Positions 483 to 56,215 of a DNA stretch of 56,215 nucleotides are shown here, one piece after another. Numbering within the stretch: position 1 is the first letter of the stretch; each line of letters begins with the position of its first letter. This stretch comes from Acutalibacteraceae bacterium (GTDB lineage: Bacteria > Bacillota > Clostridia > Oscillospirales > Acutalibacteraceae). The position numbers and the translations under genes are program-made. Location: NCBI GenBank assembly GCA_045531495.1, contig JAZSED010000038.1:1-56215 (forward strand). The letters are read 5' to 3'. Below the pieces are notes generated by a model. It did no database searches. It had not been told where the DNA came from and saw nothing but the letters and a program-made list of their open reading frames with translations.

Positions 483-546
483 CCTTCCCCTTGAGGGGAA
501 GGGGTATTCCCCTGACAGGGGAAATGTCCGAAGGACAAAGGGGTGG
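483..546 (+). repeat. Two short GC hairpins plus tail (hairpin-tail repeat family member)
   Basis: CCTTCCCC-TTGA-GGGGAAGG lies at 483-502 and TTCCCCT-GAC-AGGGGAA at 507-523. They are followed by the tail TGTCCGAAGGACAAAGGGGTGG, which resembles the reverse complement of the 47841-47870 tail. Confidence 0.6.
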
Positions 547-596: not shown

Positions 597-665
597 ACAC
601 CTCATCAGGCTCGCTTTGCTCGCCAGCTTCTCCTCAAGGAGAAGCCTTTTCCCTAATCCCTAACC
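597..665 (-). repeat. Hairpin-tail repeat, inverted copy of 55962-56027
   Basis: The first 54 nt (ACACCTCATCAGGCTCGCTTTGCTCGCCAGCTTCTCCTCAAGGAGAAGCCTTTT) are identical to the reverse complement of 55974-56027. A 3-nt indel follows, then 12 identical nt (TAATCCCTAACC). Hairpin GCTTCTCC-TCAA-GGAGAAGC lies at 626-645. Confidence 0.85.
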
Positions 666-11758: not shown

Positions 11759-14700
11759 TTATTCTACCCAATACCCTTCGTTGAAGTAATACTCTTTTCC
11801 GCCGATTTTAAATACGCCGTTTTCGGCAATCTTACCGTTTGCCAAGACGTATACCCATTTGCCGTTTGCAGCGGTGTACCAGCCTTGCTTGGTCACCAGC
11901 TTGCCGCCGGCATCGTAGTAGCTGTAGCTGTTGTCATACCAAGCGAACATAACATCGTTTGCAATCATTTTGCCGTCATAATCAAACGCATAGTACGCAT
12001 TACCGATTTTGTATTCCGTTTCGCCCGAAACGACCTGGCCGTATTCGTCAATGTAATACCAATCGTTGCCAACCTTCAGCCAGCCCTGCTGGTTTACGGT
12101 GCGAACAAGCACGCCGGCGTTATCGAAATAGTACATCGTACTGCCGATAACACAATAGCCCGTCACCATATGCGGCTCTACGGTTGCGCCGATATACATA
12201 CCAAGCGCGTCGCCGTATACGTCTACGTAATATCTCTTGCCGTTTTCAAACACCCAAGAGGAAAGCTTATGCGTTCTGTCAAAATACACCCACTCGCCAT
12301 GGATTTTCTTCCAGCCGAGATAGTCAGCACGCTCGCCACCCGCGGTGTAGTAGAAACAACCGCCTTCGGTATAGGCGAAGCAATCGGTCACCATTTTGCC
12401 GTCATAGTCGAAATAATACCACTTGCCGTCGATAAGGAGCTCTCTGTCTCTTACCGTACGTTCTGCCATTATATAATACCAATTGCCGTTAAACGATTTC
12501 CAGCCGTCGGTCGTGCCTAAACGGTTTTCACCGAGCCAAACACCGTTTTTGTCAAAGGAATGCTGTTTACCATTGATGGTGAGCGTTTCATCGTACGCCA
12601 TCATATCGCCACGGAAATAGTACCATTTACTGCCCTGCTGCAGCCAATCGTTGCACACAAGAGAGCCGTCGGCTCTGGCATATACCCAATAATCCTCTAC
12701 TATTTCGTACCAGCCGGATTTTACCTTGACACCTTTCTTATTGACGTAATATAGTTTTCCGTTGTCCGTTTCAATAAATTCGTTGACCGCCATTGCGCCT
12801 TCGCGAATATAGTAGTCACCCGTCCAACCGGTATACGGTTTACCGTTCACAAAGTAAAGGGCTTCGCCGTAACCGCCCGACTGCCGATACGTCCAACCGT
12901 TAGGTGCCGTTCTTTTAATAACCGCACCGTCATTGTTGGTGGTAACAATCTGTTCACTGTAATAGTCATATACAGTAGTATTTACCAGCAATCTGCCGTC
13001 ATCAGCAAACAGATACGCTTTGCCGTTAACAGAGTAAATACCGTCTCTGTGCAACCAACCGCAATCGTTGGGATTGCCGTAATACCAAATGCCGTCCACC
13101 TTAAACCAGCCGGTCAGCGCATCACCGTTGCCGCCGAGGTATCGGTTGTCATAGAATTGGTTAGCAAGCATTTTGCCGTCGTTGTCAAACACAAAGAAGC
13201 GGTCTTTTTCGTCAACAAATTCCCATCTGACAAGCTCTTTTCCATAGCCGTAATCATCAACATAATACCAGCTGCCGCCTGCCTGATGCCAGCCTGCCGT
13301 GCTGAAGGAGCCTACCTTTTTACCGTCGCCGTTGGTGACATACCATACGCCGTTGACTTCACAGGTGCCGTTCTCGACCAGCACACCGTTTTCCTGGAAC
13401 ACGTATCCTGCGCTGTCCACGCCCGTAAAGAGCTTGCCGCTGGACGCCGCCCAGAACCAATGATTATGAGAATCCTTTATCCAGCCTTTGTTTGCCATCA
13501 CACCATCGGCGTCGAAGAAATAAAAGGCATTGTCAATGTAGTAAGAGCCGTCGTACACCATCATACCGTCATGGAGGAAATAGTACCAACGGGCACCCTC
13601 GCCACGCCATTTGTTGGTGATAAGTGCACCGCTCGCTTGGGCAAAATACCACCTTCCTCGGCTGTCGGCAACCCAACCGTTACACGCCATTACACCGTTC
13701 GCATCAAAGAAATAGTATGCATTCCCGATGTAAGCGGAGCAATTGGTGAGCATAGTACTGCCCTCATCGAAATAGTACCATTTTCCGCCGGACTGTATCC
13801 ATTTTTCGGTCGCCGGTTTTCCGTTCTCCAAATAGATGGTACGACCGTAAAGCTCTATAAAGCCTGTAGAAGTGAGCTTTTGGGAAACACCGTTTCCTGC
13901 AGCAACGTATGCGTAGCCGTCGTCACCGAGGAAATAGGTTGCATAGGTCATCTCGGGCTGCATATAATACTTGTTGTTTTCCAGCCAACCGACATACAAG
14001 CTGGAATCTCCGGTAAAGTATACCCATTCGCCGTTGATGGCTTTCCATTGTCCTACATATGTAGCAATGCTGCCGCCGTTGCCGTTTTCATCCATATAGG
14101 TCGCATAATAATATTTGCCGGTAGCATAATCCTCTACGATTTCGTCGGTTCTCAGCTCACCGTTATTGGAAAACGCATACCGCTTGCCGCCGATTTGGTA
14201 AATACCGCCTTCATAGCGGAGGCCGTCGTCACCGAAATAGTACCAAGCGCCATAGTCGTAGAGTTTTACCCATTGATTCTGCGCCAACGCGCCGTCTGCC
14301 GCGCCGCCCTGCGCGTAATAATACTCCCACTCACCGGTCTCTTCATCGTATATGCTGAAATCGGTATTAAAGTACATCCGGCAGTCCCAATCAAAGCCGT
14401 ACAGCTTGCCGCCGATTTCATAAATACCTTCGTAGCAAAATGCATTATCCTGTACATAATACCAATAACCGTCTTCCAGCGTCCAACGATTGTTCAAAAC
14501 CTCTCTGGCAACGCCCGATGCATTCACTAAAATGCATCTTACCGTATCGCCTTCATACACCGTGTGGGTGCCGCCGGTCAATATGTAACCGTCTCCGCTA
14601 AAATAATATTGTTTCCCGTCAACAGTAACCAATCCTTGGGGCGCTTTGCCATCCGCACCGTAGTAATACCAATCGCCCCATTCGTAATCGGGACCGTTGC

Positions 14701-15976
14701 CGTAATCCTCATAATACCACGCGTTGACATATAGCGCACCGCCTGCTCTGGCGCGGTAATGGCCGTCGTTCACCCATTCCCAGATTTCTTCGTCCCAATG
14801 ACCAAACGAGAAGCTTTCGTCATCATACATCCAGCCGCTCGCATCGAAACCGTACAGGACGTCGTAAATTGCATACACACCGTTCTGGTAGCGTTTAGCG
14901 TCTGCGCCATAATAGGTCCAATATCCCTCAGGGGTCAGAATCCATTTGCTCTGCGCTAACGCACCGTCTGCCGCGCCGCCCTGCGCGTAATAATACTCCC
15001 AATCATCAATTGCTTCGTTGTACCGCTCGAAAACAGCGTCATAATACATTTTTGCGTCGTAGTCGAAGCCGTATTGCTTACCGCCAATGGTATAAATTTC
15101 ACCGCTGCAAAATGCATTATCCTGTACATAATACCAATACCCGCCCAATGCCGTCCATTGGTTATTGAAGGCTTCCTTGGCAATACCGTCTGCATCTACC
15201 ACGAAAAACCGCAGCGCAGATTCTTCGTCTTCTGTATACACGCCCTCGGTATACATACAGCCGTCGTTTCGGAAATAATACTGTTTACCCTGAACGGTGG
15301 CAAAGCCCTTCACTGCTTTGCCTTTATCACCGTAGTAATACCAATCGCTCCATTCGTAATCGGGGCCGTTGCCGTAATCTTCATAATACCACGCGTTGAC
15401 ATAGAGCGTGCCGTCCTCCTTGGCACGGTAAGAACCGACAGTCACCCACATATCTGCCTCTTGGTCGTACCGATCCACCGAGAACGTTTGATCCCGGTAC
15501 ATCCAACCTTGGTCAGTAAAGCCGTACCAAGCGCCGCCGATTTCATACACACCGTTGGTATACGCCTTGCCGTCGGCACCGAAATAATACCATTTTTCGT
15601 CATCCTGCTTCCAATCGTTCAAAAGCAGCTTGCCATCTGCCTGCGCATAGTAATACTCGATCTCATCCGTCTCGTAGTTGTATCGGTCATACAGACCGTC
15701 GTTTTGCAGCACGCCGTTCCCATCAAACACGTACCATGCATCGCCGATTTGGAAAGCGCCGTTTTCATAACGGCTTCCGTCCTCACCGGCGTAGTACCGT
15801 TCGCCTTCATACTCCACCCATTGGTTGGTGAGTATTTCTCCGTCCTGCACAAAGACCCATTCCCAGACAGTGTCACTCCACTCGTAGGAAACACTACCTT
15901 CGGCAGATACCGCGGTTACGGACAACAGAAATGCCATCAGTAACGCGAGAAATGCCACCGTTCTTTTGCCTTTCAT
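11759..15976 (-). CDS. Secreted protein made almost entirely of cell-wall/choline-binding-type (CW_binding_1-like) repeats
   Basis: Signal peptide MKGKRTVAFLALLMAFLLSVTAVSA. After it, roughly 20-aa units of the type GW.k..GkWYYF...G.m..G run for about 1380 aa. No recognisable catalytic domain is present. Confidence 0.85.
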   Translation of the reverse strand: MKGKRTVAFLALLMAFLLSVTAVSAEGSVSYEWSDTVWEWVFVQDGEILTNQWVEYEGERYYAGEDGSRYENGAFQIGDAWYVFDGNGVLQNDGLYDRYNYETDEIEYYYAQADGKLLLNDWKQDDEKWYYFGADGKAYTNGVYEIGGAWYGFTDQGWMYRDQTFSVDRYDQEADMWVTVGSYRAKEDGTLYVNAWYYEDYGNGPDYEWSDWYYYGDKGKAVKGFATVQGKQYYFRNDGCMYTEGVYTEDEESALRFFVVDADGIAKEAFNNQWTALGGYWYYVQDNAFCSGEIYTIGGKQYGFDYDAKMYYDAVFERYNEAIDDWEYYYAQGGAADGALAQSKWILTPEGYWTYYGADAKRYQNGVYAIYDVLYGFDASGWMYDDESFSFGHWDEEIWEWVNDGHYRARAGGALYVNAWYYEDYGNGPDYEWGDWYYYGADGKAPQGLVTVDGKQYYFSGDGYILTGGTHTVYEGDTVRCILVNASGVAREVLNNRWTLEDGYWYYVQDNAFCYEGIYEIGGKLYGFDWDCRMYFNTDFSIYDEETGEWEYYYAQGGAADGALAQNQWVKLYDYGAWYYFGDDGLRYEGGIYQIGGKRYAFSNNGELRTDEIVEDYATGKYYYATYMDENGNGGSIATYVGQWKAINGEWVYFTGDSSLYVGWLENNKYYMQPEMTYATYFLGDDGYAYVAAGNGVSQKLTSTGFIELYGRTIYLENGKPATEKWIQSGGKWYYFDEGSTMLTNCSAYIGNAYYFFDANGVMACNGWVADSRGRWYFAQASGALITNKWRGEGARWYYFLHDGMMVYDGSYYIDNAFYFFDADGVMANKGWIKDSHNHWFWAASSGKLFTGVDSAGYVFQENGVLVENGTCEVNGVWYVTNGDGKKVGSFSTAGWHQAGGSWYYVDDYGYGKELVRWEFVDEKDRFFVFDNDGKMLANQFYDNRYLGGNGDALTGWFKVDGIWYYGNPNDCGWLHRDGIYSVNGKAYLFADDGRLLVNTTVYDYYSEQIVTTNNDGAVIKRTAPNGWTYRQSGGYGEALYFVNGKPYTGWTGDYYIREGAMAVNEFIETDNGKLYYVNKKGVKVKSGWYEIVEDYWVYARADGSLVCNDWLQQGSKWYYFRGDMMAYDETLTINGKQHSFDKNGVWLGENRLGTTDGWKSFNGNWYYIMAERTVRDRELLIDGKWYYFDYDGKMVTDCFAYTEGGCFYYTAGGERADYLGWKKIHGEWVYFDRTHKLSSWVFENGKRYYVDVYGDALGMYIGATVEPHMVTGYCVIGSTMYYFDNAGVLVRTVNQQGWLKVGNDWYYIDEYGQVVSGETEYKIGNAYYAFDYDGKMIANDVMFAWYDNSYSYYDAGGKLVTKQGWYTAANGKWVYVLANGKIAENGVFKIGGKEYYFNEGYWVE
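14270..15595 (-). repeat. Tandem duplication of a ~224-aa (~670-nt) block inside the repeat protein gene
   Basis: aa ~128-345 and ~352-569 align colinearly, e.g. LYVNAWYYEDYGNGPDYEW, WYYVQDNAFC and EYYYAQGGAADGALAQ in both. A 40-nt run, CCGTCTGCCGCGCCGCCCTGCGCGTAATAATACTCCCA, is identical near 14291 and 14964. Confidence 0.75.
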
Positions 15977-18300: not shown

Positions 18301-19746
18301 ATGGAGAATCTTCGTACGGTCGCAGACCGCTGTCTTCTTAACCGTCTCGCCTTCAAAATATTGATGGTGTTGTCGGTTTTGGTGACCGCAGTCCCATATT
18401 TACACACCGCCGTCGGTGGATATGTAAAATTCGTGTTGCTGTATGGTTTTGTGATAATCGGGTATGAGCTGCTGACAGGCAAGCTTGCCGATGCCTTTCG
18501 AAAAAAGACCAATTGGCTGCTTATCGGCTTTTGCATATTTTATGCGATTACGCTTTTTCTTAACCGCGCAGGCAATCTGACCGCGGGAGTAAAAAGCTTT
18601 GCATATATGATAAGCTTCTTTGTGTTGTTCTTTATGACCAAAAACGGACAAACCAAGGCTTCTATCATACGGGAAATAAAAGTTCTGGCTTTTGTTATCA
18701 TTCTCGGCACCTTTCTTTTGAGTGCCGTTTCTTTGGCCACCTTCATTTTCTCTGTCTCAGGGAAATACCTCAACGGCGACGGCATTGTGGTGTACTACGG
18801 TATGTTTGAAAACCGCCTTTGGGGTCTTTACAATCCCAACACCGGCGCCACCCTCAATGGCATCTCTATATTACTGTCGGTAGGTTGCTTGTGCACCGTT
18901 AAGAACCGTATCTCCACCGTTTTTAACGGCGTTAACCTGTTTTTGCAGTTCTCCTGCTTATTATTGACAGGTTCTCGCGCATCCTACTATATGGTAGTGG
19001 TTACGCTGATGATTTTGACAGCGTTCTGGACCTTGCAACGGTTTCCGCGCACCACGTTGCGCGCAGGTATTGCCGCGTTTTTATCTATGGTGCTTATTGC
19101 GGCAACGATTATGGGGGTCGGCGCCGTGTTGCGCTTAGGCTACGCGTATGCGCCGAGTGTCACCGCGGCTGTTTTCGCCCCAAAAGAGGGGACCGACGAA
19201 ACACCCCCTGTGTCCGACGATGACACAGCGCCCGTCACGCCGCCCGCCAATACCGACAACATCGAAAAACAAGATTTTACCCGCTTGGAAGAGCTGGAAG
19301 GGCGCGAAGGCGGCTTCTTTAACGGACGCGCGCCGATGTGGGCCGCTTGTTTTAAAACTTTCAAAGAAGCACCGCTTTTCGGTGTCGGCTATGAAAACCT
19401 CATTGAACGCACCCTCCCGCATTTTCAGGACAACACCTGGAAGGAGCATTTCCGCACAGGCGGACCGCACAACATATACATTACCATTCTTACTTCCTGC
19501 GGTGCTCTCGGTTTTGTTTTGTTGGGTCTGTTTGCCGCTGTTACCTTTGTGCGATCAGCGACGGTGCTTTTGAAAACCTACAGAAAAGGCAACGTGTGGT
19601 TGTTACTTTCTATTTGTATTTGCGTTATGTTTTACATAACCGAGTTCGTAGAATCGCGCATACTGTTCCAGGTTAGCACCTTCAGCGTGTTTTTCTGGCT
19701 GTTTGTGGGATATATGTATCGGTTGGCTATGGATACTTTAGAATGA
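18301..19746 (+). CDS. O-antigen ligase/polymerase family (Wzy_C-like) polytopic membrane protein, copy 1
   Basis: About 12 TM segments, the motif LLLTGSRASYY, and a hydrophilic loop followed by GVGYENL. Confidence 0.7.
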   Translation: MENLRTVADRCLLNRLAFKILMVLSVLVTAVPYLHTAVGGYVKFVLLYGFVIIGYELLTGKLADAFRKKTNWLLIGFCIFYAITLFLNRAGNLTAGVKSFAYMISFFVLFFMTKNGQTKASIIREIKVLAFVIILGTFLLSAVSLATFIFSVSGKYLNGDGIVVYYGMFENRLWGLYNPNTGATLNGISILLSVGCLCTVKNRISTVFNGVNLFLQFSCLLLTGSRASYYMVVVTLMILTAFWTLQRFPRTTLRAGIAAFLSMVLIAATIMGVGAVLRLGYAYAPSVTAAVFAPKEGTDETPPVSDDDTAPVTPPANTDNIEKQDFTRLEELEGREGGFFNGRAPMWAACFKTFKEAPLFGVGYENLIERTLPHFQDNTWKEHFRTGGPHNIYITILTSCGALGFVLLGLFAAVTFVRSATVLLKTYRKGNVWLLLSICICVMFYITEFVESRILFQVSTFSVFFWLFVGYMYRLAMDTLE

Positions 19747-21078: not shown

Positions 21079-22269
21079 ATGAGTCTTAAAATTGCAATTG
21101 CCGGTACCGGTTACGTCGGCTTGTCCTTGGCAACCCTGTTGTCTCAAAAGCACGAAGTATACGCGGTGGATATCATCCCCGAAAAGGTGGAACTGATAAA
21201 CAGCAGAAAATCCCCCATTCAGGACAATGAGATTGAGGAATTTTTTGCAACCAAAACCTTGAATCTCACCGCAACGCTGGATGTGGAGCAGGCATACATC
21301 GGTGCGGACTTTGTGGTGATTTCCACCCCCACCAACTATGACCCGAAGGTAAACTACTTCGACACCTCGTCTGTAGAAAACGTTATCCAGACGGTGTTGC
21401 GTTTGGCACCCGAAGTGCCGATGATCATCAAATCCACCGTTCCGGTCGGCTTTACCGAGTCGGTCAGAAAGAAATACAATTGTGACCACATTTACTTCTC
21501 CCCCGAATTTTTGCGCGAAAGCCGTGCCTTGTACGACAACCTGTATCCGTCCAGAATTATCGTGGGTGCGCCGGTTGACAGCGAAAAGGCGCAGGCGCAC
21601 GCAAAGCAGTTCGCAGAGCTGCTCAAAGAAGGCGCGTTGAAAGAGGATATTCCCGTTCTGTTCACCAACCCCACCGAGGCGGAAGCGGTAAAACTGTTTG
21701 CCAATACCTACCTTGCACTGCGCGTTTCCTTCTTCAACGAGTTGGATACCTATGCCGAGGTGCGCGGCTTGGATACCAAGCAGATTATCGAGGGTGTCGG
21801 CCTTGACCCGCGTATCGGTCTGCATTACAACAACCCCTCGTTCGGTTACGGCGGATATTGCTTGCCGAAAGACACCAAACAGTTGCTCGCAAACTTCGCG
21901 GACGTACCCAACAACATCATCCGTGCTATCGTAGATGCAAACAGCACCCGCAAAGATTTCATTGCGGAACGTATTTTGGAGCGCAACCCCAAATGCGTGG
22001 GTGTATACCGCCTTACCATGAAATCCAATTCGGACAACTTCCGCGCTTCTTCCATTCAGGGTGTTATGAAGCGCATCAAAGCGGAAGGTGTTGAGGTCAT
22101 TATTTATGAGCCGACCCTGTCAGAAGAAACCTTCTGCAATTCCCGTGTGGTTAACGACATCGAGGCGTTTAAAGCGCAAAGTGACGTTATCATCGCCAAC
22201 CGCTATAACGAGGATATTGCGGACGTGCTGGATAAGGTATATACCAGAGATTTGTATTTTAGAGACTAA
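21079..22269 (+). CDS. ugd: UDP-glucose 6-dehydrogenase family enzyme
   Basis: [16 protein letters not shown] is a Rossmann motif, and [10 protein letters not shown] carries the catalytic Cys motif. Confidence 0.85.
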
Positions 22270-22290
22270 AAACCCGCTTAAGGGTGTTGC

Positions 22291-22396
22291 GGTTAGGGAT
22301 TTGAAGAAACTTGCGGCGAAAGACTGAGAGATACAAACATAGTATCCCTCCACCACCGCTAACGCGGCGGTCCCCCTCCCTTTAGGCAAGGGAGGC
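22291..22396. repeat. Convergent pair of hairpin-tail repeats (left copy degenerate)
   Basis: GGTTAGGGATT...TGCGGCGAAAGACTGAGAGATA (22291-22333) faces AGTATCCCTCCACCACCGCTAACGCGGCGGTCCCC + CCTCCCTT-TAGGC-AAGGGAGG (22341-22396). The second copy resembles the arms flanking DUF559. Confidence 0.7.
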
Positions 22397-22419
22397 AGAA
22401 AAACGCCCACAAAAAAGCA

Positions 22420-22466
22420 AGAGAAGATACACATCTTTTGTGTATCTTCTCTATTTTTATCCCTAT
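22420..22466. repeat. Inverted copy of the 412-458 hairpin repeat; likely doubles as a bidirectional terminator
   Basis: AGAGAAGATACACA-loop-TGTGTATCTTCTCT followed by ATTTTTATCCCTAT. Confidence 0.8.
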
Positions 22467-22481
22467 GCGAGGTTTCTTTTT

Positions 22482-24581: not shown

Positions 24582-26000
24582 TTAGCCCTCTTCCTTTTCT
24601 GCTAATGCCAAATTGTACATATATCCTGCAAACAACCAGAAGAACACACTAAAGGTGCTGACCTGGAACAAAATACGTGCCTCCACAAACTCGGTGATAT
24701 AAAACATCAGACACACACAAATCAAGGTAAGCAACCACGGATTTGCCTTTTTGTATGATTTTACGTACATCACACACGACCGTATCAACGTCCATGCCGC
24801 AAAGGTGCCCAGGAACAAAAAGCCGATGATGCCGCAGGACGTGAGTATGCACACGTAGATATTGTGTGCGCCGCCCGTGCGGAAATGCTCCTTCCAGGTG
24901 TCGTCTTCAAAATGCGGGAGGGTACGTTCAATAAGATTCTCGTAGCCGACACCGAAAAGCGGCGCTTCTTTAAAGGTTTCAAAACAGGCAAACCACATAG
25001 TCGCTCTGCCGTTAAAGAAACCGCCTTCGCGACCCTCCAATTCCTCTAAACGGGTGAAATCCTGTTTTTCGATTTCGGTGTCCTTTTCCCCATCAGGGTC
25101 CTGTTCGGACGGCTCAGTGGCAGAAATAATGATGTTGGTAAGTCCCGGCAGATACGCATATCCTGCTTTTAACGCACTGCCCAGCCCTACATACATACCA
25201 ACCATTACAACCACGCAAAGCGCAGACGCCCCCACAGCGCGCAGCTGCAGTTTGGGGAACCGTTTCAACACGGTGAACGCGGTCAACAGCACCAAGGTTA
25301 AAACCATAATATAATACGATGCGCGGGAGCCTGTCAGCAACAGGCAGGAGAACTGCAAAAACAGGTTAATACCGTTAAAAACGGTGGAGATACGGCTTTT
25401 CACCGTCAAAATACACCCCACCGACAACAGCATGGAAATGCAGTTGAGGGTTGAGCCGGTATTGGGATTGTAAAGCCCCCAAAGGCGGTTTTCAAACATA
25501 CCGTAGTACACCATAATGCCGTCCCCGTTGAGATATTTTCCGGAAACGGAGAAGATGAAGGTCGCCATGGAAACAGCGCTCAGAATAAAGGTGCCTGCGA
25601 TAATCACAAACGCAAGGATTTTGATTTCGCGCACGACGCCTTCCTTGGTTTGTCCGTTTTTGGCCATAAAGAACAGCACAAAGAAAACCGCCATATACGC
25701 GAAACTCTTCACGCCTGCGATAAGGTTGTCCGTGCGATTGAGCAGCAAGGTTATAGTATAAGACACGCAAAAACCGATAAGCAGCCAATTGGTCTTCTTT
25801 CGAAAGGCATCGGCAAGCTTGCCTGTCAGCAACTCATACCCTATCACCAAAAAGCCGTACAGCAACACTATCTTGACATATCCGCCAAATGCCGTATGCA
25901 AATACGGCACCGCCGTCACCAACACGGCCATTGCCATTAAAATTTTGAACACCAATCGGTTAAAAAGATATTTATCTGCGATGAGACGCAACCTTTCCAT
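24582..26000 (-). CDS. O-antigen ligase/polymerase family membrane protein, copy 2 (paralog of 18301-19746)
   Basis: Colinear with copy 1. I hand-counted about 79 identical residues in the first 100. I moved the start to the ATG at 26000 (MERLRL), which has a GGGAGGGG RBS. Confidence 0.7.
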   Translation of the reverse strand: MERLRLIADKYLFNRLVFKILMAMAVLVTAVPYLHTAFGGYVKIVLLYGFLVIGYELLTGKLADAFRKKTNWLLIGFCVSYTITLLLNRTDNLIAGVKSFAYMAVFFVLFFMAKNGQTKEGVVREIKILAFVIIAGTFILSAVSMATFIFSVSGKYLNGDGIMVYYGMFENRLWGLYNPNTGSTLNCISMLLSVGCILTVKSRISTVFNGINLFLQFSCLLLTGSRASYYIMVLTLVLLTAFTVLKRFPKLQLRAVGASALCVVVMVGMYVGLGSALKAGYAYLPGLTNIIISATEPSEQDPDGEKDTEIEKQDFTRLEELEGREGGFFNGRATMWFACFETFKEAPLFGVGYENLIERTLPHFEDDTWKEHFRTGGAHNIYVCILTSCGIIGFLFLGTFAAWTLIRSCVMYVKSYKKANPWLLTLICVCLMFYITEFVEARILFQVSTFSVFFWLFAGYMYNLALAEKEEG

Positions 26001-26163
26001 TTTGCTACCCCTCCCTTGCTTTCCACATCCTTGCATACACAAGCAGTATAGCAGTTTTGCGAGATTTTGTCAATTGCGCGGAACGTATATCCGCACCGTC
26101 TCAATAGTTTACAATTCGTATATAAATATACAAATTATACTCTATGTTCTTTTTCTGGGTGAT

Positions 26164-28511: not shown

Positions 28512-29309
28512 TCACCGCGGTATTCGTATAACATACTCTATGAATCCTTCCCGTTCATATTTCTTGCTCTCTGCCGCAACACCGCCGCGGCGCATGGTAT
28601 CTATGGCGTGCTCCACCGTATTGAAAAACACACGCACGTCGCGGATAAGCGGTACCTCTCTGCGATGTCGCGCCACCTTTCCTGACAGCATTTTTTCAAT
28701 AAACGCATCCGTTTCGGCAACGGTCATACTCTTTTTCAGTATTTCGGCAAGCGCAAACCGCCGTTCTTCGGGTTTTTGCAGCCGCAACAGCGCTCTTGCG
28801 TGCCGTTCCGAAAGACCGCCCTCGGTAATTAACCGCCTTTCCTCGGGAGAAAGCCGCAAGAGGCGCAGCTTGTTAGCCACCGCCGATTGCGAATACCCCA
28901 ACCGCAATGCCGCTTCTTCCTGTGTCAGACCGTATGTATGTATCAGCTGGTGAATACCTTGCGCCGTTTCAAAGCAATTCATATCCTCACGCTGGAGATT
29001 CTCCACCATCGCAAGCAACGCCTGCCGCATTCCTTCCGCTTCGGCGCGCACACACGGCACGGTGGAAAACCCCGCCATTTTTGCCGCGCGCAAACGCCTC
29101 TCCCCCGCTATCAGTACAGGACGCTCGTTCTTCATAGTTACAATCAGCGGCTGTAATATCCCGTTTTCCGCGATGCTTTCCGCAAGCTCGAGCAATTTTA
29201 CCCTGTCAAACCGTTTACGCGGCTGGTCGGGATTGGGCAAAATATCCGCTATGGGTATCTCCATTACCTCGCCGCTCACCTTATATTTTCCTTTTTTCAA
29301 TCCTTTCAT
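28512..29309 (-). CDS. noc: ParB-family nucleoid occlusion-like protein
   Basis: ILPNPDQPRKRFD and LIAGERRLRAAKMAG are ParB-box motifs. There is an HTH segment, and the C-terminus VFFNTVEHAIDTM...IRIPR is Noc-like. Start is the ATG at 29309. The position after rsmG also fits. Confidence 0.75.
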   Translation of the reverse strand: MKGLKKGKYKVSGEVMEIPIADILPNPDQPRKRFDRVKLLELAESIAENGILQPLIVTMKNERPVLIAGERRLRAAKMAGFSTVPCVRAEAEGMRQALLAMVENLQREDMNCFETAQGIHQLIHTYGLTQEEAALRLGYSQSAVANKLRLLRLSPEERRLITEGGLSERHARALLRLQKPEERRFALAEILKKSMTVAETDAFIEKMLSGKVARHRREVPLIRDVRVFFNTVEHAIDTMRRGGVAAESKKYEREGFIEYVIRIPR

Positions 29310-29412
29310 CTTTCTAACTCCCAAAACAAAAAGTCCGAAGGAAAATCCTTCGGACTTACTGTACCATATTGTATGTGTGCCGTTTGTCATAAACGCACGG
29401 CGGGAAAAGGGA

Positions 29413-30135
29413 TTATAACGGATTTTTTGCGATTTTTGCGGTAGGACGCGGGAAAGCGGTCGGTGTAGCGGTTACCTTGTCGATGAGATATATCTGCCGC
29501 GCCGCCGTCTCCCCCTTGCTGTCCGCGGGCAGTCGGAATGTATGCACATCACGGGTTTTACCGCCGAGTTTTTGGATAGCCGCAGTGCTGCGCGCCGCCT
29601 CTTCCGCCCCTGTCGGGCCTTTCAGCGCCAAAAACCATCCTCCCACCTTTACGTACGGCAAGCAATATTCACAAAGCAACGGCAAACCTCCCACCGCACG
29701 GGCGGTAGCCACGTCGAATGTATCGCGGTACAAAGGATTTTTACCGCCTTCTTCCGCACGCAGATGCACCAAATCGGCCGTAATACCCAATGCCTTGCAC
29801 ACCGTATCCAAGAAAATCAGTCGTTTGTTTAGGCTGTCTAACAAGGTGAGCTTACAATCGGGGCGCAAAATAGCAATCGGCACACCGGGGAAGCCCGCAC
29901 CCGTACCCACGTCAATAAGCGAAAAAGCGCCCTGCGGCAGTAACGGCGCCGCCGCCACGCTGTCCGCAAAGTGTTTTATCACCACATCGGTGGGGTCAGT
30001 AATGGCGGTAAGGTTCATTTTTTGGTTCCATTCCACCAACAGCTCCGCGTATTTATCGAATTTTTCCGCCGCAACCTCGTCTATCTCTACCCCAACGCTT
30101 AAAGCGGCGGTTTTTAATAAAGTTTTATCTATCAT
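29413..30135 (-). CDS. rsmG: 16S rRNA (guanine527-N7)-methyltransferase
   Basis: LVEWNQKMNLTAITDP and the SAM motif IDVGTGAGFPGVPIAI. Start is the ATG at 30135, with an AGGAGA RBS. Confidence 0.9.
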   Translation of the reverse strand: MIDKTLLKTAALSVGVEIDEVAAEKFDKYAELLVEWNQKMNLTAITDPTDVVIKHFADSVAAAPLLPQGAFSLIDVGTGAGFPGVPIAILRPDCKLTLLDSLNKRLIFLDTVCKALGITADLVHLRAEEGGKNPLYRDTFDVATARAVGGLPLLCEYCLPYVKVGGWFLALKGPTGAEEAARSTAAIQKLGGKTRDVHTFRLPADSKGETAARQIYLIDKVTATPTAFPRPTAKIAKNPL

Positions 30136-30191
30136 TTTGTTTCTCCTGTTTGTTTCACGTGGAACAACCCCTACCCTCTTGTCGACAGTGT

Positions 30192-30249
30192 GAAAGCCTC
30201 CCTTGTGTAAAGGGAGGTGGCACGGCGTTAGCCGTGACGGAGGGATTGT
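30192..30249 (+). repeat. Left arm of the inverted hairpin-tail repeat pair flanking DUF559
   Basis: GAAAGCCTCCCTTGTGTAAAGGGAGGTGG (30192-30220) is the perfect reverse complement of 30623-30651. The inner 11 nt, GGAGGGATTGT, also match. Confidence 0.9.
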
Positions 30250-30560
30250 TTTACTAAGAAATCTATATATTCGCAAACACCTGAGAAGTTATTGTTTACG
30301 TCATTGTTCGGTATTCTTACAACTTTAATACCATATTGTTCGAGAAAAGTTGTTCTTACGGTGTCTTTTTCAATGTGTATTTTTTCAAAGTGTTGCGAAC
30401 CGTCTAATTCTACAACCAATTTTGCTTTTGCACAATAAAAATCCGCTATATATTTACCAATCGGTTTTTGTCGCAAGAATTTTACAGAGTATCCTCGCAA
30501 AAAGTCATACCATAAGTGTCTTTCTTCTTTGGTCATATTTCTGCGAAGCATTCTCGCCAA
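30228..30560 (-). CDS. DUF559 (PF04480-type, Vsr-like PD-(D/E)xK endonuclease fold) protein
   Basis: ARMLRRNMTKEERHLWYDFLR, FLRQKPIGKYIADFYC, LVVELDGSQH and VVRIPNNDV fit the DUF559 pattern. The start is TTG at 30560 or ATG at 30551, with no clear RBS. The last 7 codons lie inside the repeat arm. Confidence 0.8.
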   Translation of the reverse strand: MARMLRRNMTKEERHLWYDFLRGYSVKFLRQKPIGKYIADFYCAKAKLVVELDGSQHFEKIHIEKDTVRTTFLEQYGIKVVRIPNNDVNNNFSGVCEYIDFLVKQSLRHG

Positions 30561-30594
30561 GGGAACTATTTTGCTGTTGTGCTTTCTTTCCGTA

Positions 30595-30651
30595 ACAATC
30601 CCTCCGGTTTCGCTTCACTCAACCACCTCCCTTTACACAAGGGAGGCTTTC
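30595..30651 (-). repeat. Right arm of the inverted hairpin-tail repeat pair flanking DUF559
   Basis: ACAATCCCTCC...CCACCTCCCTTTACACAAGGGAGGCTTTC. The last base is shared with the mnmG stop codon. Confidence 0.9.
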
Positions 30652-32513
30652 TATTTGTTCGTATACACAATCAACACCGAAATATCAGCGGGGCTGACAC
30701 CGCTGATGCGGCTTGCCTGTCCGATGTTATGCGGACGTACCTTCGCCAGCTTTTCCTGCGCTTCTTTACGCAAGCCTGTAATCGTGCTGTAATCGGTATC
30801 CGCAGGTATCAACCGCTTTTCCAAGCGGCGCATTTCCGCAATATCCGCCAACTGCCGTTTGATATACCCTTCATACTTAATTTCCACTTCAACCTGCTCC
30901 AGCACAAGGGCGGGCAGGTCGGGACGGTCGGTATCAATGGGAGCAAGCGCCTCATAACCGATATTCGGGCGGCGCATCAAATCAATCAGCTTTGCGCCGG
31001 TAGACAACGGTGTGGTTTCACGTGAAACAAGTATCGCGTTTATCGCTTCAGAAGGTGCTATCACCGTTTTTTCCAAGCGTTCACGCTCTTTTTGCTTCAT
31101 TTCGCGGCGCTGACAGAAATGCGCCCACCGTTCATCGTCCACCAACCCTACCTCCCTGCCGATGGGGGTGAGGCGCTCATCCGCGTTATCCTGTCGCAGT
31201 ACGAGGCGGTATTCCGAGCGTGAGGTCATCATACGGTACGGGTCGCTGCAGCCCTTGGTCACCAAATCGTCAATTAAGGTGCCGATATAGCCGGATGCAC
31301 GGTCTAAAATCAGCGGCTCCAGGCCTTTCACCTTGCGGGCAGCATTCACACCCGCCACCAAGCCCTGTGCGGCGGCTTCTTCATAACCCGAGCTGCCGTT
31401 AAACTGTCCTGCGCCGAAAAGTCCGTCCACCGTTTGGAATTCTAATGACGCCGCCAGCTGAATAGGGTCAATACAATCGTATTCAATCGCGTACGCAGGG
31501 CGCATCACCTGTACCTTCTCTAAACCGGGGATGGTGCGCAGAAACTTAAGCTGCACGTCCACGGGGAGTGAGGAGCTTAACCCCTGCAAATACATTTCTT
31601 CGGTGTTTTTGCCGCACGGCTCAATAAATACCTGGTGCCGTTCCTTATCCGCGAATCGCACCACCTTGTCTTCAAAACTCGGGCAATAGCGCGGACCGAC
31701 ACCCTCAATCTTGCCGCCAAACAACGGAGAACGGTGCAGATTTTCGTGAATGACCTGCTTGGTCTCCTCGGTGGTCCAGGTAATATGGCAAGGCAATACG
31801 TTTTTGGGCGGTATCACGGTCTCAAAAGAGAACGGCGTAACCGGTTCCTCACCTGCCTGTTCTTCCATTTGCGAGAAATCAATACTCTGTCGCAGTACAC
31901 GGGACGGTGTACCCGTCTTAAAACGGCGCAAGGAAACACCAAGTTTTTCCAAAGCGCCAGACAGGTCGTTTGCCGCAAACATACCGTCAGGACCGCCCTC
32001 GAAATTGACGTCACCGATAAAAATACGTCCTTTTAAAAACGTACCGGTTGCCAACACCACCGTTTGTGCAACATACTGCGCTTCCACACGGGTGGTCAAC
32101 AAAAATTTACCGTCCTCGGTTTTCTCTATATCAACAACCTCGCCTTGGCGCAGGTCAAGGTTTTCCTGCAGCTCCAGCGCGTGCTTCATATACGCGGCAT
32201 AATCACGGCGGTCAATCTGCGCACGCAGAGAATGCACCGCGGGTCCCTTGCCGCGATTGAGCATCCGCGACTGTAACAAGGTGGCATCCGCCGCCTTGCC
32301 CATTTCGCCGCCGAGTGCGTCAATTTCGCGCACAAGATGTCCCTTTGCGGTACCGCCGATGGACGGATTACACGGCATATTGCCGACCCAATCCATATTG
32401 ACCGTAAACACCGCGGTTTTCGCGCCCAAACGCGCCGCCGCAAGACCCGCTTCAATACCCGCGTGTCCTGCACCGATAACCGCAACATCGTATTTTTCCT
32501 CTAAAAATTTCAT
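30651..32513 (-). CDS. mnmG: tRNA uridine 5-carboxymethylaminomethyl modification enzyme
   Basis: YDVAVIGAGHAGIEA is the FAD motif, and the translation reads MnmG/GidA-like over its full length. Start is the ATG at 32513 (MKFLEEKYDV), with an AAGGGGAG RBS. Confidence 0.95.
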   Translation of the reverse strand: MKFLEEKYDVAVIGAGHAGIEAGLAAARLGAKTAVFTVNMDWVGNMPCNPSIGGTAKGHLVREIDALGGEMGKAADATLLQSRMLNRGKGPAVHSLRAQIDRRDYAAYMKHALELQENLDLRQGEVVDIEKTEDGKFLLTTRVEAQYVAQTVVLATGTFLKGRIFIGDVNFEGGPDGMFAANDLSGALEKLGVSLRRFKTGTPSRVLRQSIDFSQMEEQAGEEPVTPFSFETVIPPKNVLPCHITWTTEETKQVIHENLHRSPLFGGKIEGVGPRYCPSFEDKVVRFADKERHQVFIEPCGKNTEEMYLQGLSSSLPVDVQLKFLRTIPGLEKVQVMRPAYAIEYDCIDPIQLAASLEFQTVDGLFGAGQFNGSSGYEEAAAQGLVAGVNAARKVKGLEPLILDRASGYIGTLIDDLVTKGCSDPYRMMTSRSEYRLVLRQDNADERLTPIGREVGLVDDERWAHFCQRREMKQKERERLEKTVIAPSEAINAILVSRETTPLSTGAKLIDLMRRPNIGYEALAPIDTDRPDLPALVLEQVEVEIKYEGYIKRQLADIAEMRRLEKRLIPADTDYSTITGLRKEAQEKLAKVRPHNIGQASRISGVSPADISVLIVYTNK

Positions 32514-47840: not shown

Positions 47841-47911
47841 CTACCCCTCAGTCCTCGTTACACTCGGACAGCTCCCCTGACAAGGGGAGCTAAGGGTTTT
47901 CGCGACTTTTG
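47841..47911 (-). repeat. Hairpin-tail repeat (direct copy at 56146-56215)
   Basis: CTACCCCTCAGTC + variable 17 nt + AGCTCCCCTGACAAGGGGAGCT + AAGGGTTTTCGCGACTTTTG. The first 13 nt and the 22-nt hairpin core are identical in the two copies. Confidence 0.85.
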
Positions 47912-55961: not shown

Positions 55962-56027
55962 GGTTAGGGATTAAAAAGGCTTCTCCTTGAGGAGAAGCTG
56001 GCGAGCAAAGCGAGCCTGATGAGGTGT
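55962..56027 (+). repeat. Hairpin-tail repeat (inverted copy of 597-665)
   Basis: GGTTAGGGATTAAAAAGG + GCTTCTCC-TTGA-GGAGAAGC + tail TGGCGAGCAAAGCGAGCCTGATGAGGTGT. Confidence 0.85.
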
Positions 56028-56145: not shown

Positions 56146-56215
56146 CTACCCCTCAGTCTCGCTCCGCTCGCCAGCTCCCCTGACAAGGGGAGCTGAGGAT
56201 TTTCGCGACTTTTGC
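56146..56215 (-). repeat. Hairpin-tail repeat (direct copy of 47841-47911), truncated by the window end
   Basis: CTACCCCTCAGTCTCGCTCCGCTCGCCAGC is the reverse complement of a TGGCGAGCGGAGCGAGACTGAGGGGTAG tail. GCTCCCC-TGACAA-GGGGAGC and GAGGATTTTCGCGACTTTTG follow. Confidence 0.85.

Follow-up and report, generated by a model that had tools for sequence, protein, structure and literature searches.

A DUF559 nuclease gene framed by inverted hairpin modules: a conserved cassette of Clostridia with a predicted DNA triplex code

The 56,215-nucleotide stretch of Acutalibacteraceae DNA analyzed here (contig JAZSED010000038.1; hereafter the window) carries at 30192-30651, between mnmG and rsmG, a small open reading frame (ORF) of the DUF559 family that lies between two convergent copies of a dispersed hairpin repeat. 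An earlier reading of these letters (the original prediction) had likened this layout to the REPtrons of Proteobacteria. The locus thus raises the question of whether gene and repeats belong together and, if so, what the encoded protein does with the hairpins. By comparison with other genomes, 30192-30651 was found to be one copy of a conserved cassette of the Oscillospirales and other Clostridia, in which a DUF559 gene of 121 to 122 codons stands between two inverted modules (arms) of about 55 nt. We give roughly even chances to a coupled nuclease-repeat system, in which the DUF559 enzyme would act on folded hairpin/triplex modules that also supply its expression signals.

An inverted-repeat scan of the window recovered 30192-30220 and 30623-30651 as perfect 29/29 reverse complements, as had been claimed; by direct arithmetic a perfect 29-mer inverted pair no more than 500 nt apart is expected by chance in a 56-kb window about 1e-10 times. 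The inner ends likewise match, over 24 nt at 79% (30238-30261 versus 30583-30606). Each arm folds into a hairpin of 8-9 bp followed by a further small hairpin, with DNA z-scores of -3.8 to -5.8 that were equalled by none of 200 shuffles. The hairpin-plus-tail plan of the original prediction therefore stood, except that its TGGC tail start does not hold for the right arm, which reads TGGT. The GC content within 30192-30651 (0.335-0.38) is well below that of mnmG and rsmG (0.52-0.58), in agreement with the A+T richness noted by eye. The spacer between these two genes measures 515 nt, of which 30192-30651 occupies most, and the mnmG stop codon ends at base 30651, so that its last base is common to gene and repeat as had been stated. 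As had been seen, the ORF ends in KQSLRHG-stop within the left arm, whose tail and second hairpin supply these codons. This left (3') arm is of the 'CCTCC' type normally found at the 5' side and is atypical for its position; a cassette with two 5'-type arms, as in the window, was seen in only 2 of the 107 genes examined.

The cassette is not confined to this locus. A scan of one genome per GTDB species gave at least 600 pattern matches and at least 582 confirmed cassette loci, and a homology search with the window protein saturated at more than 8000 close homologues. The 80 loci kept from the GTDB scan are all from metagenome-assembled genomes of Clostridia, mostly Oscillospirales, the closest being Acutalibacteraceae. 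About 75 of the 80 share the same 5' arm, with the consensus AAAGCCTCCCTT-GTGTA-AAGGGAGG-TGG-[variable hairpin]-AC-GGAGGGATTGTA-ATG, and the same 3' arm, AAACAATCCCTCAGTC-[variable hairpin]-GACAGCTCCCTT-TACAC-AAGGGAGCC-TTTTTT, and the sequence outside the arm boundaries differs from locus to locus (median cassette length, 455 bp). The typical 3' arm repeats the 5' arm imperfectly in inverted orientation, reading GCTCC/GGAGC/TGAGG versus CCTCC/GGAGG/GGAGG. In all DNA fetched, arms were present on about 100 of 107 DUF559 genes, with some 3-5 genes lacking recognisable arms; several copies per genome are possible (L002, L017, L066, L104). Arms of this plan without an ORF, either solo or in convergent doublets, are far commoner than the gene.

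The ORF predicted at 30228-30560 on the minus strand matches DUF559/PF04480 with an E-value of 4.5e-30 (104.2 bits against a cut-off of 20.6; residues 2-99 of 110 aa). Its Pfam matches were limited to DUF559, MTES_1575 and DUF2726, and no Y1/HUH (RAYT) or other transposase domain was found in it by this search; PADLOC returned weak partial matches only (DpdF, mREase_II). The score against NCBIfam PRK09767 was 80 bits, under the cut-off of 218, so that E. coli YcjD and the window protein are not equivalogs. By sequence, the window protein matches the endonuclease-like protein 3HRL of N. gonorrhoeae (E 2.6e-17); its match to the homing endonuclease I-Bth0305I is weak (E 0.025). Foldseek with an AlphaFold2 model (mean pLDDT 70.8) retrieved 3HRL (E 9e-6), I-Bth0305I (3R3P; E 5e-4, TM 0.77) and Vsr (1VSR; TMq 0.63). 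Among 16 sequences D58, E69, D71 and R100 are invariant and H75 nearly so (numbering of the 128-aa window sequence, A1); the window motif DF...ELDGSQH aligns with DF...EADGGQH of 3HRL, and R.PN is likewise invariant or nearly so. The window protein thus has a predicted PD-(D/E)xK/Vsr-like nuclease fold, as had been proposed, together with the conserved acidic and histidine residues. The protein is under strong purifying selection: ORFs are intact in 78 of 80 species and exactly 122 aa long in 60, and the median pairwise ratio of nonsynonymous to synonymous substitution rates (dN/dS) is 0.097.

The start of the window gene is unusual. Homologues are mostly 120-122 aa long and begin M-[DE]-R-K-H-N-K, and the window reads in frame ...GGIV-T-ERKHNSK, with ACG rather than ATG at the family start position (30593-30591), 6 nt past a perfect GGAGGG Shine-Dalgarno sequence in the repeat tail. 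The frame is open over 121 codons from this ACG, so that the DUF559 ORF of the original prediction was correctly placed but its length of 333 nt was too short (full ORF, 30228-30593); canonical start codons first occur in frame at 30560 (TTG) and 30551 (ATG). The 'weak start signals' noted earlier are explained by the ACG at the ATG position of the family, but the Shine-Dalgarno sequence before it is perfect. The same ACG is found in L001, L002 (first copy), L004 and P0003, and other loci have ATA, GTG or TTG at this position. We note that ACG occurs in a sub-clade with diverged second hairpins, that ATA occurs in three other loci, and that each locus with a non-canonical start codon (the window, L001, L002, L004, L017, L036 and L073) retains a perfect Shine-Dalgarno sequence and an intact ORF. 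These non-canonical starts suggest a deliberately weak translation of the nuclease rather than decay. Automatic annotation mis-calls cassette genes, giving N-terminal extensions or truncated starts (e.g., P0001, P0003, P0006). The window gene was mis-called by the gene caller from a downstream ATG (102 aa), and other database entries (cases among P0001, P0003, P0006 and P0022) run upstream through the arm, e.g., MCKGRWQNFSFDGGIV..., since the arm is open in frame.

The type of arm goes with the clade of the nuclease, and arms that differ between clades are matched within each. A second DUF559 clade, whose L136 member shares 51% identity, has GGAGAAGG/GGGGAAGG arms with GGATGAGG tails (genes of L136, L231, L232, L236 and L204). 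In L136 the gene has CCTTCTCC/GGAGAAGG...GGATGAGGTG-TAA-ATG at one end and CACCTCATCA-hairpin-AGCTTCTCC/GGAGAAGC at the other, and the pattern recurs in L231, L232/L234, L236/L238 and L204, with some arms missing or in direct orientation. In L231 (890-1500; ENA ERZ1046549 scaffold_22) the gene lies within direct repeats of about 85 nt that contain the 5' arm, instead of an inverted repeat, and thus the cassette layout is not uniform across clades. A metagenome scan for the GGAGAAG-type arm returned 83 arms, mostly ORF-less doublets 40-60 nt apart. The window itself holds ORF-less arms of both clade types.

Read 5' to 3' from the outside inward, each module consists of a pyrimidine arm, a loop and a purine arm, together forming an 8-bp hairpin, followed by a variable mini-hairpin and a purine tail. 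The tail is the mirror image of the purine arm, neither a copy nor the complement of the stem; it begins at the hairpin base and lies antiparallel to the purine arm. From stem to tail G is answered by G, A by A or T, and C by T. The three strands vary jointly, as in CCTCCCCT/AGGGGAGG/GGAGGGGT, CCTCTCTT/AAGAGAGG/GGAGAGAT and GCTCC/GGAGC/TGAGG, and further stems change with their tails (GGAGAAGG to GGATGAGG, GGGAGAGG to GGAGAGGG, AAGGAGGG to GGGAGGAT and GAGGAAGG to GGAAGGAG). The second hairpin is variable yet paired, with CG/GC/UA/AU exchanges at 5 pairs and 69 distinct stems, and is often of the GCGNAGC/GCGNNAGC type. When 1.31 Mb were scanned without regard to tails, 461 perfect pyrimidine/purine hairpins of at least 8 bp fell into 35 stem types, 18 of which had a perfect 8/8 mirror tail within 46 nt; permuted stem types gave 2.8±1.4 (maximum 7 in 300 permutations) and a direct-copy control gave 7. 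A relaxed arm scanner gave many chance matches at stems of 6-7 bp, and only stems of at least 8 bp or matches curated by eye were used.

Both window arms present 8/8 legal triplets (G.G-C, A.A-T, T.A-T) in the order pyrimidine, purine, reverse-Hoogsteen purine, and their stem length is within the 6-15 nt of the ITxF definition (PMC4666352). Loop 1 is 3-5 nt long (5 nt in the window) and loop 2, with its mini-hairpin, mostly 16-20 nt, beyond the 1-6 nt of the ITxF definition. In architecture and base code the arms match an intrastrand DNA triplex of the class II purine-motif kind whose second loop is structured by the mini-hairpin; the triplex itself is a prediction. Two pairings were considered and rejected: between tail and pyrimidine arm (anti-Shine-Dalgarno sequestration) the best register has 6 pairs, wobbles among them, and the variants do not compensate in that register; nor was the covariation put down to 5' and 3' tails that pair with each other, as 5' variants (GGAGGGGTT) retain a standard 3' arm.

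The features of the arms point to folded single-stranded DNA. T and A alternate opposite A-T pairs (AGGGGAGG is answered by GGAGGGGT 10 times and by GGTGGGGT 6 times), and arms of the GGAGAAG type have a fixed internal T opposite an A-T pair; both fit the purine motif and would be mismatches in the pyrimidine motif. Purine-motif triplexes have been reported not to form in RNA (PMC4666352). Of 150 distinct spacers, 38 contained a mini-hairpin motif of the GCGNAGC/GCGNNAGC type on the purine-tail strand and 2 on the complement; the window has the core GCGTTAGC, and other loci have GCGAAGC or CCGAAGG. Such motifs are far less stable as RNA (PMC13037366). Such mini-hairpin DNA is known from single-strand initiation sites (PMC13037366), and the second hairpin of the arms often has the exact core; in the arms, by contrast, the motif forms the turn between hairpin and mirror tail, with no known link to priming. 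Since the arms are inverted, the same folded strand runs 5' to 3' inward at both ends of the cassette, which is impossible for one transcript. Asymmetry of G.T versus A.C mismatches in the first hairpin, used as an RNA/DNA test, was uninformative (8 against 6). The arms may in addition have a role at the RNA level.

In the coupled system to which we give even chances, the nuclease would recognise and nick the folded module in single-stranded or extruded DNA, and, through recombination between arms induced by nicks or breaks, would maintain or spread the cassette together with its ORF-less relatives. The ORF-less modules would be the non-autonomous majority, and nuclease and repeats would form a coupled, largely vertically inherited system like RAYT and REPIN. 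The window copy, with its ACG start, would be expressed weakly, if at all, by read-through from mnmG.

Several points weigh against this coupled system. The step from associated and co-varying to recognising, cutting and propagating is our own, and the roles of the arms as ribosome-binding site and terminator could alone explain why they travel with the ORF. The window copy has no canonical start codon. Triplex formation is predicted from sequence rules only, and the GGAGG of the commonest arm type is itself mirror-symmetric, so that part of the mirror relation comes free in that type and the argument rests on the rarer variants. Only one of the 83 GGAGAAG-type arms adjoins a DUF559 gene (that of L136); the arms therefore need no nearby gene and may be a repeat family in its own right, exploited by the gene. 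At the window cassette the flanks AACAAATA| and |ACACTGTC share no target-site duplication, and the spacers of relatives have diverged too far to define a clean excision footprint. Finally, recent mobility was sought through identical proteins in different contexts and none was seen in the metagenomes sampled: P0064 kept the same context in 8 of 8 places and P0006 in about 7 of 8. The cassettes thus look vertically stable and do not appear to hop on short time scales, a stability that resembles that of RAYT genes more than that of insertion sequences. Of the proposal that DUF559 may recognise or mobilise the hairpins, the association was upheld, and no sign of recent movement was seen.

A broader proposal starts from known triplex repeats. 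The BoxC/TM_ECO repeats of E. coli have the same pyrimidine-purine-tail plan and form triplexes in vitro (Holder et al. 2015, PMC4666352). PIT/BoxC/TM_ECO elements were noted as palindromic repeats in the 1990s and have been regarded as potential triplex formers since 2000 (Hoyne et al. 2000, cited in PMC4666352). They mark unstable loci and have been tied to no enzyme or function in mobility; near TM_ECO sites no genes related to mobility, as transposase or integrase remnants would be, were reported, and ycjD and DUF559 are unmentioned (PMC4666352). Like the cassette arms, these repeats have the class II purine-motif order (pyrimidine, loop, purine, loop, reverse-Hoogsteen purine), G-rich stems of 8-9 nt, dispersed intergenic copies and an association with variable loci. 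They differ in that loop 2 of TM_ECO is 3 nt long; the longer loop 2 of the Clostridia arms exceeds the ITxF limit, so that these arms would not have been catalogued. The Clostridia arms moreover form convergent doublets and frame a nuclease gene, whereas no enzyme has been found for TM_ECO.

In E. coli MG1655 (L092; NC_000913.3, 1351030-1351850) the single DUF559 gene is ycjD. Its GTG start falls within a 16-bp hairpin, in the 3' arm, and its stop within a CCCTCTCCC stretch. Part of the 3' end of ycjD recurs downstream as a duplicated remnant, and a full BoxC/TM_ECO motif (CCCTCGCCC-CTCT-GGGGAGAGGG-TTA-GGGTGAGGGG) stands about 165 nt downstream. The gene was found in 3378 of 5426 complete E. 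coli genomes (62%), and the remainder carry the eef operon (eefRABCD) at the site; the genomes without ycjD were thus ruled out as a clean empty site, this efflux operon being there instead. The adjacency of ycjD and BoxC is one anecdote, consistent with a wider link of DUF559 to triplex repeats. On the broader proposal, DUF559 proteins would be structure-specific enzymes for intrastrand triple-helix/hairpin modules in single-stranded DNA and the missing partners of bacterial triplex repeats (PIT/BoxC-like elements of Proteobacteria and the Clostridia arms), making up a new class of nuclease-repeat replicator analogous to RAYT-REPIN, of which ycjD-BoxC would be a reduced form. We regard this as tentative and rather unlikely in its full extent.

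The mnmG-rsmG junction of relatives bears on how the cassette came to its site. Eleven loci from relatives keep the order gyrA-mnmG-rsmG-parB-fusA (RsmG identity, 85-91%) and have no DUF559 gene in the mnmG-rsmG spacer. This spacer is 71 nt long and free of any hairpin in L084 and L085, holds a solo arm in L081, L082/L083 and L091, and holds ORF-less convergent arms of other stem types in the closest relative (L087) and in L086 and L088-L090. In L002, the mnmG gene of which is 86.7% identical, a cassette follows mnmG but with a different junction, second hairpin and start codon, and a second cassette before mnmG has the leader most like that of the window. The spacer is thus a hot spot, and presence of the cassette is lineage-specific. 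Its exact empty-site boundary is undefinable, since spacers at this level of RsmG identity cannot be aligned base by base. The original prediction had named four tests of the association: arms at other DUF559 genes, arms beyond this locus, relatives with an empty site in place of a bare gene, and intact catalytic residues. About 100 of the 107 genes have arms, the arm family is widespread, relatives' spacers are empty or hold ORF-less arms, the only one with DUF559 at the junction (L002) has arms there too, and the residues are conserved. All of these favour a real DUF559-repeat association, and the analogy with the REPtron layout is therefore apt.

This variability could also be the mark of a homing-type selfish gene, a doubtful explanation but the strongest of those that separate gene from repeats: DUF559 would cut the spacer of ORF-less convergent doublets and be copied in by recombinational repair via the arms, the arms being pre-existing host repeats of the PIT/REP type and the gene a parasite. 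Such a gene would account for the fold match to I-Bth0305I, the position of the ORF exactly between convergent arms, the frequency of ORF-less doublets with 40-60-nt spacers, the ORF-less doublet at this very site in L087, and the AT richness of the ORF relative to its host. The identity of the window arms over 29 nt, as from gene conversion, the likeness of the window leader to a cassette at another L002 site, and the presence/absence polymorphism at a conserved site, with the gene absent from the 11 relatives' loci, point the same way. However, the arms beside the gene are clade-specific, and the difference between 5' arms (GGAGG tail, serving as Shine-Dalgarno sequence) and 3' arms (TGAGG tail) is kept across species, which indicates that the arms travel with the ORF. 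The L087 doublet is moreover of a different stem type than the window arms, the gene is stable in context within species, and a dN/dS of 0.1 over deep divergence suggests long retention instead of cycles of invasion and decay. I-Bth0305I and other EDxHD/Vsr-like homing endonucleases share with the cassette protein a small Vsr-like catalytic domain and a site-variable gene presence; by contrast, the cassette gene lies in no intron or intein, encodes no extra DNA-binding domain, has only about 19-20% identity to I-Bth0305I and is framed by structured inverted repeats.

Still less likely, to our minds, is that the arms are cis-acting RNA elements only, with a protective or regulatory hairpin in the 5'-untranslated region (UTR), folded so as to sequester the Shine-Dalgarno sequence, a terminator and possibly a 3' end stabilised by an RNA triple helix; the ORF-less arms would then be cassettes that have decayed, and the nuclease would have an unrelated role, e.g., in repair. 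The signals are there. The 5' repeat tail is the Shine-Dalgarno sequence of the DUF559 gene, and its inverted copy at the 3' end encodes the conserved C-terminal KQSL (invariant Q-S-L codons). Promoter-like TGnTATAAT boxes lie 14-25 nt upstream of the first hairpin in several groups, in which the 5' arm is thus transcribed as 5' UTR. The 3' hairpin and T-run look like a terminator in the typical copies and in most loci, and the sense strand of the 3' arm has the pyrimidine-motif order, which is able to form in RNA (PMC4666352). Against a purely RNA-level role, ORF-less arms retain the mirror code without need of a Shine-Dalgarno sequence, the T opposite A-T pairs in the tail would not match in a triplex of RNA with the pyrimidine motif, and the mini-hairpin is on the purine-tail strand at both ends, i.e., antisense at the 3' arm. 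ORF-less doublets also mix arm types and are thus not simple deletion products. No Rfam family matches the region: Rfam 15 gave no match at the gathering score in the whole window and none at E<=1 in 30100-30750.

Mere coincidence at a recombination hot spot, where triplex/hairpin repeats would make intergenic sites unstable and DUF559, like other small accessory genes, would simply accumulate, fits the greater rearrangement of TM_ECO loci than of control sites in E. coli (PMC4666352), the mnmG-rsmG spacer that differs in almost every relative and the E. coli sapF-fabI site with either ycjD and BoxC or the eef operon, but is very improbable given ORF-arm junctions that are nucleotide-exact in about 75 of 80 species (Shine-Dalgarno sequence, 6-nt spacer, start, and KQSL codons in the tail), arm types that track nuclease clade and no other gene family seen so framed by arms in the loci examined.

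The coupled nuclease-repeat system that we favour over these explanations is closest in layout to the REPtron/RAYT-REPIN systems of Proteobacteria. Both have a protein gene between inverted copies of a dispersed hairpin repeat, many gene-less repeats that occur solo or as inverted doublets with a short spacer, a stable and apparently vertically inherited gene, and a repeat type that tracks protein clade. The 'REPtron-like unit' of the original prediction holds for this layout but not for enzyme class or repeat chemistry: the cassette protein is a PD-(D/E)xK Vsr-like DUF559 protein and not an HUH/Y1 transposase, the arms start with AAAGCC and have a mirror tail and mini-hairpin but no 5' GTAG, the same folded strand lies on opposite DNA strands in the two arms, several DUF559 copies per genome are possible, and the hosts are Clostridia. 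The Vsr repair endonuclease belongs to the same fold superfamily, but its similarity is weak (E 0.4-0.6), no dcm partner is present in the neighbourhood and the 3HRL-type DUF559 core is smaller. Terminal inverted repeat (TIR) transposons and miniature inverted-repeat transposable elements (MITEs) likewise have terminal inverted repeats and short ORF-less derivatives, but the cassette has no transposase and no target-site duplication was seen. IS200/IS605 elements have subterminal hairpins at ends that act as single-stranded DNA, as those of the cassette probably do, but these ends lie on one strand and are not inverted.

No association of DUF559 with flanking repeats was found in the titles and abstracts of DUF559 papers, in agreement with the original prediction. 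As far as we can tell, the DUF559-arm cassette is real, general and undescribed, and newly combines a REPtron-like layout with PIT-like repeat chemistry. DUF559 is a very large family of small nucleases without assigned function, and its members are the first candidate protein partners for bacterial repeats of the PIT/BoxC kind, the two being connected by nucleotide-exact junctions in hundreds of species and by two clades with matched arms. The three-way covariation amounts to a natural mutational test of a DNA triple helix. If the coupling were true, it would give DUF559 a function, explain an abundant repeat family of gut Clostridia and provide a natural protein that reads a DNA triplex; the question is directly testable with 50-nt oligonucleotides and a 14-kDa protein.

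Table 1. Coordinates of the cassette parts, the resident spacer and the ORF-less arms in the window (Y, pyrimidine; R, purine).
Feature	Position	Strand	Description
5' arm	30595-30651	-	Gene-strand reading: GAAAG, then Y arm, loop, R arm, second hairpin, mirror tail, TGT
5' arm, stem parts	30646-30639; 30633-30626	-	Y arm CCTCCCTT; loop GTGTA; R arm AAGGGAGG
5' arm, inner parts	30624-30606; 30605-30598	-	Second hairpin GGTTGAGTGAAGCGAAACC; mirror tail GGAGGGAT, TGT
DUF559 (Vsr/EDxHD-like PD-(D/E)xK) endonuclease ORF, predicted	30228-30593	-	121 codons and stop
3' arm	30192-30249	+ (purine-tail strand)	GAAAG; Y arm CCTCCCTT 30197-30204; loop GTGTA; R arm AAGGGAGG 30210-30217
3' arm, inner parts	30221-30236; 30239-30246	+	TGG; mini-hairpin CACGGCGTTAGCCGTG (holds stop codon); AC; tail GGAGGGAT, TGT
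Resident spacer right of cassette	30172-30191	-	AAGAGGGT, common to relatives' spacers, there after solo hairpin
parS-like site	30151-30166	.	TGTTTCACGTGGAACA; between cassette and rsmG start; part of resident spacer, not cassette
ORF-less arm	507-544	+	TTCCCCT-GAC-AGGGGAA, mini-hairpin, tail AAGGGGT; nested in arm spanning 482-582
ORF-less arm	600-645	-	GGAGAAGC type, tail TGATGAGG; convergent with 507-544
ORF-less arm	22344-22395	-	AAGGGAGG type, tail GGAGGGAT; convergent with degenerate arm 22268-22301
Solo arm	47841-47890	-	AGCTCCCCT-TGTC-AGGGGAGCT, tail TGAGGGGT (3'-arm type)
ORF-less arm	55979-56024	+	GGAGAAGC type, tail TGATGAGG; convergent with 56146-56193
ORF-less arm	56146-56193	-	AGGGGAGCT type; 95% identical to 47869-47911

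The other repeats that had been listed for the window exist (Table 1). Their convergent, tail-to-tail pairing was confirmed for 507/600, 22268/22344 and 55979/56146 but not for the arm at 47841-47890, which is solo. At 482-582 an outer arm (CCTTCCCC/GGGGAAGG ... GACCGCGTAGCGGT ... GGTTGAGG) is broken directly after its purine arm, and the interrupting 54-nt segment (505-558) is a complete arm itself; this arm-in-arm arrangement hints that single arms may insert. A 78-nt repeat with a terminator-like hairpin (AGAGAAGATACAC...GTGTATCTTCTCT) and T-run occurs at 411-488 and 22390-22467, the copies being 87% complementary; both stand directly beside hairpin-tail arms, as if in a composite arm-terminator unit. 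In the resident spacer, AAGAGGGT could be a second, outward-facing tail of the same hairpin (7/8 mirror match).

The parS-like site, so named from the parS consensus, is kept at the same position in all of the relatives' 11 loci. It lies just upstream of rsmG and adjoins a gene of the ParB family (28512-29390, minus strand); with gyrA, mnmG, rsmG and parB together the window looks origin-proximal. Two Wzy_C (O-antigen ligase-like) genes, at 18301-19746 (plus strand) and 24582-26042 (minus strand), are inverted with 73-79% DNA identity over about 1.2 kb and bracket a polysaccharide-type cluster that includes a UDP-glucose dehydrogenase and an acyltransferase. The direct-repeat families at 11.8-15.8 kb are due to an ORF of 1405 aa (11759-15976, minus strand) that carries choline-binding/cell-wall-binding repeats.

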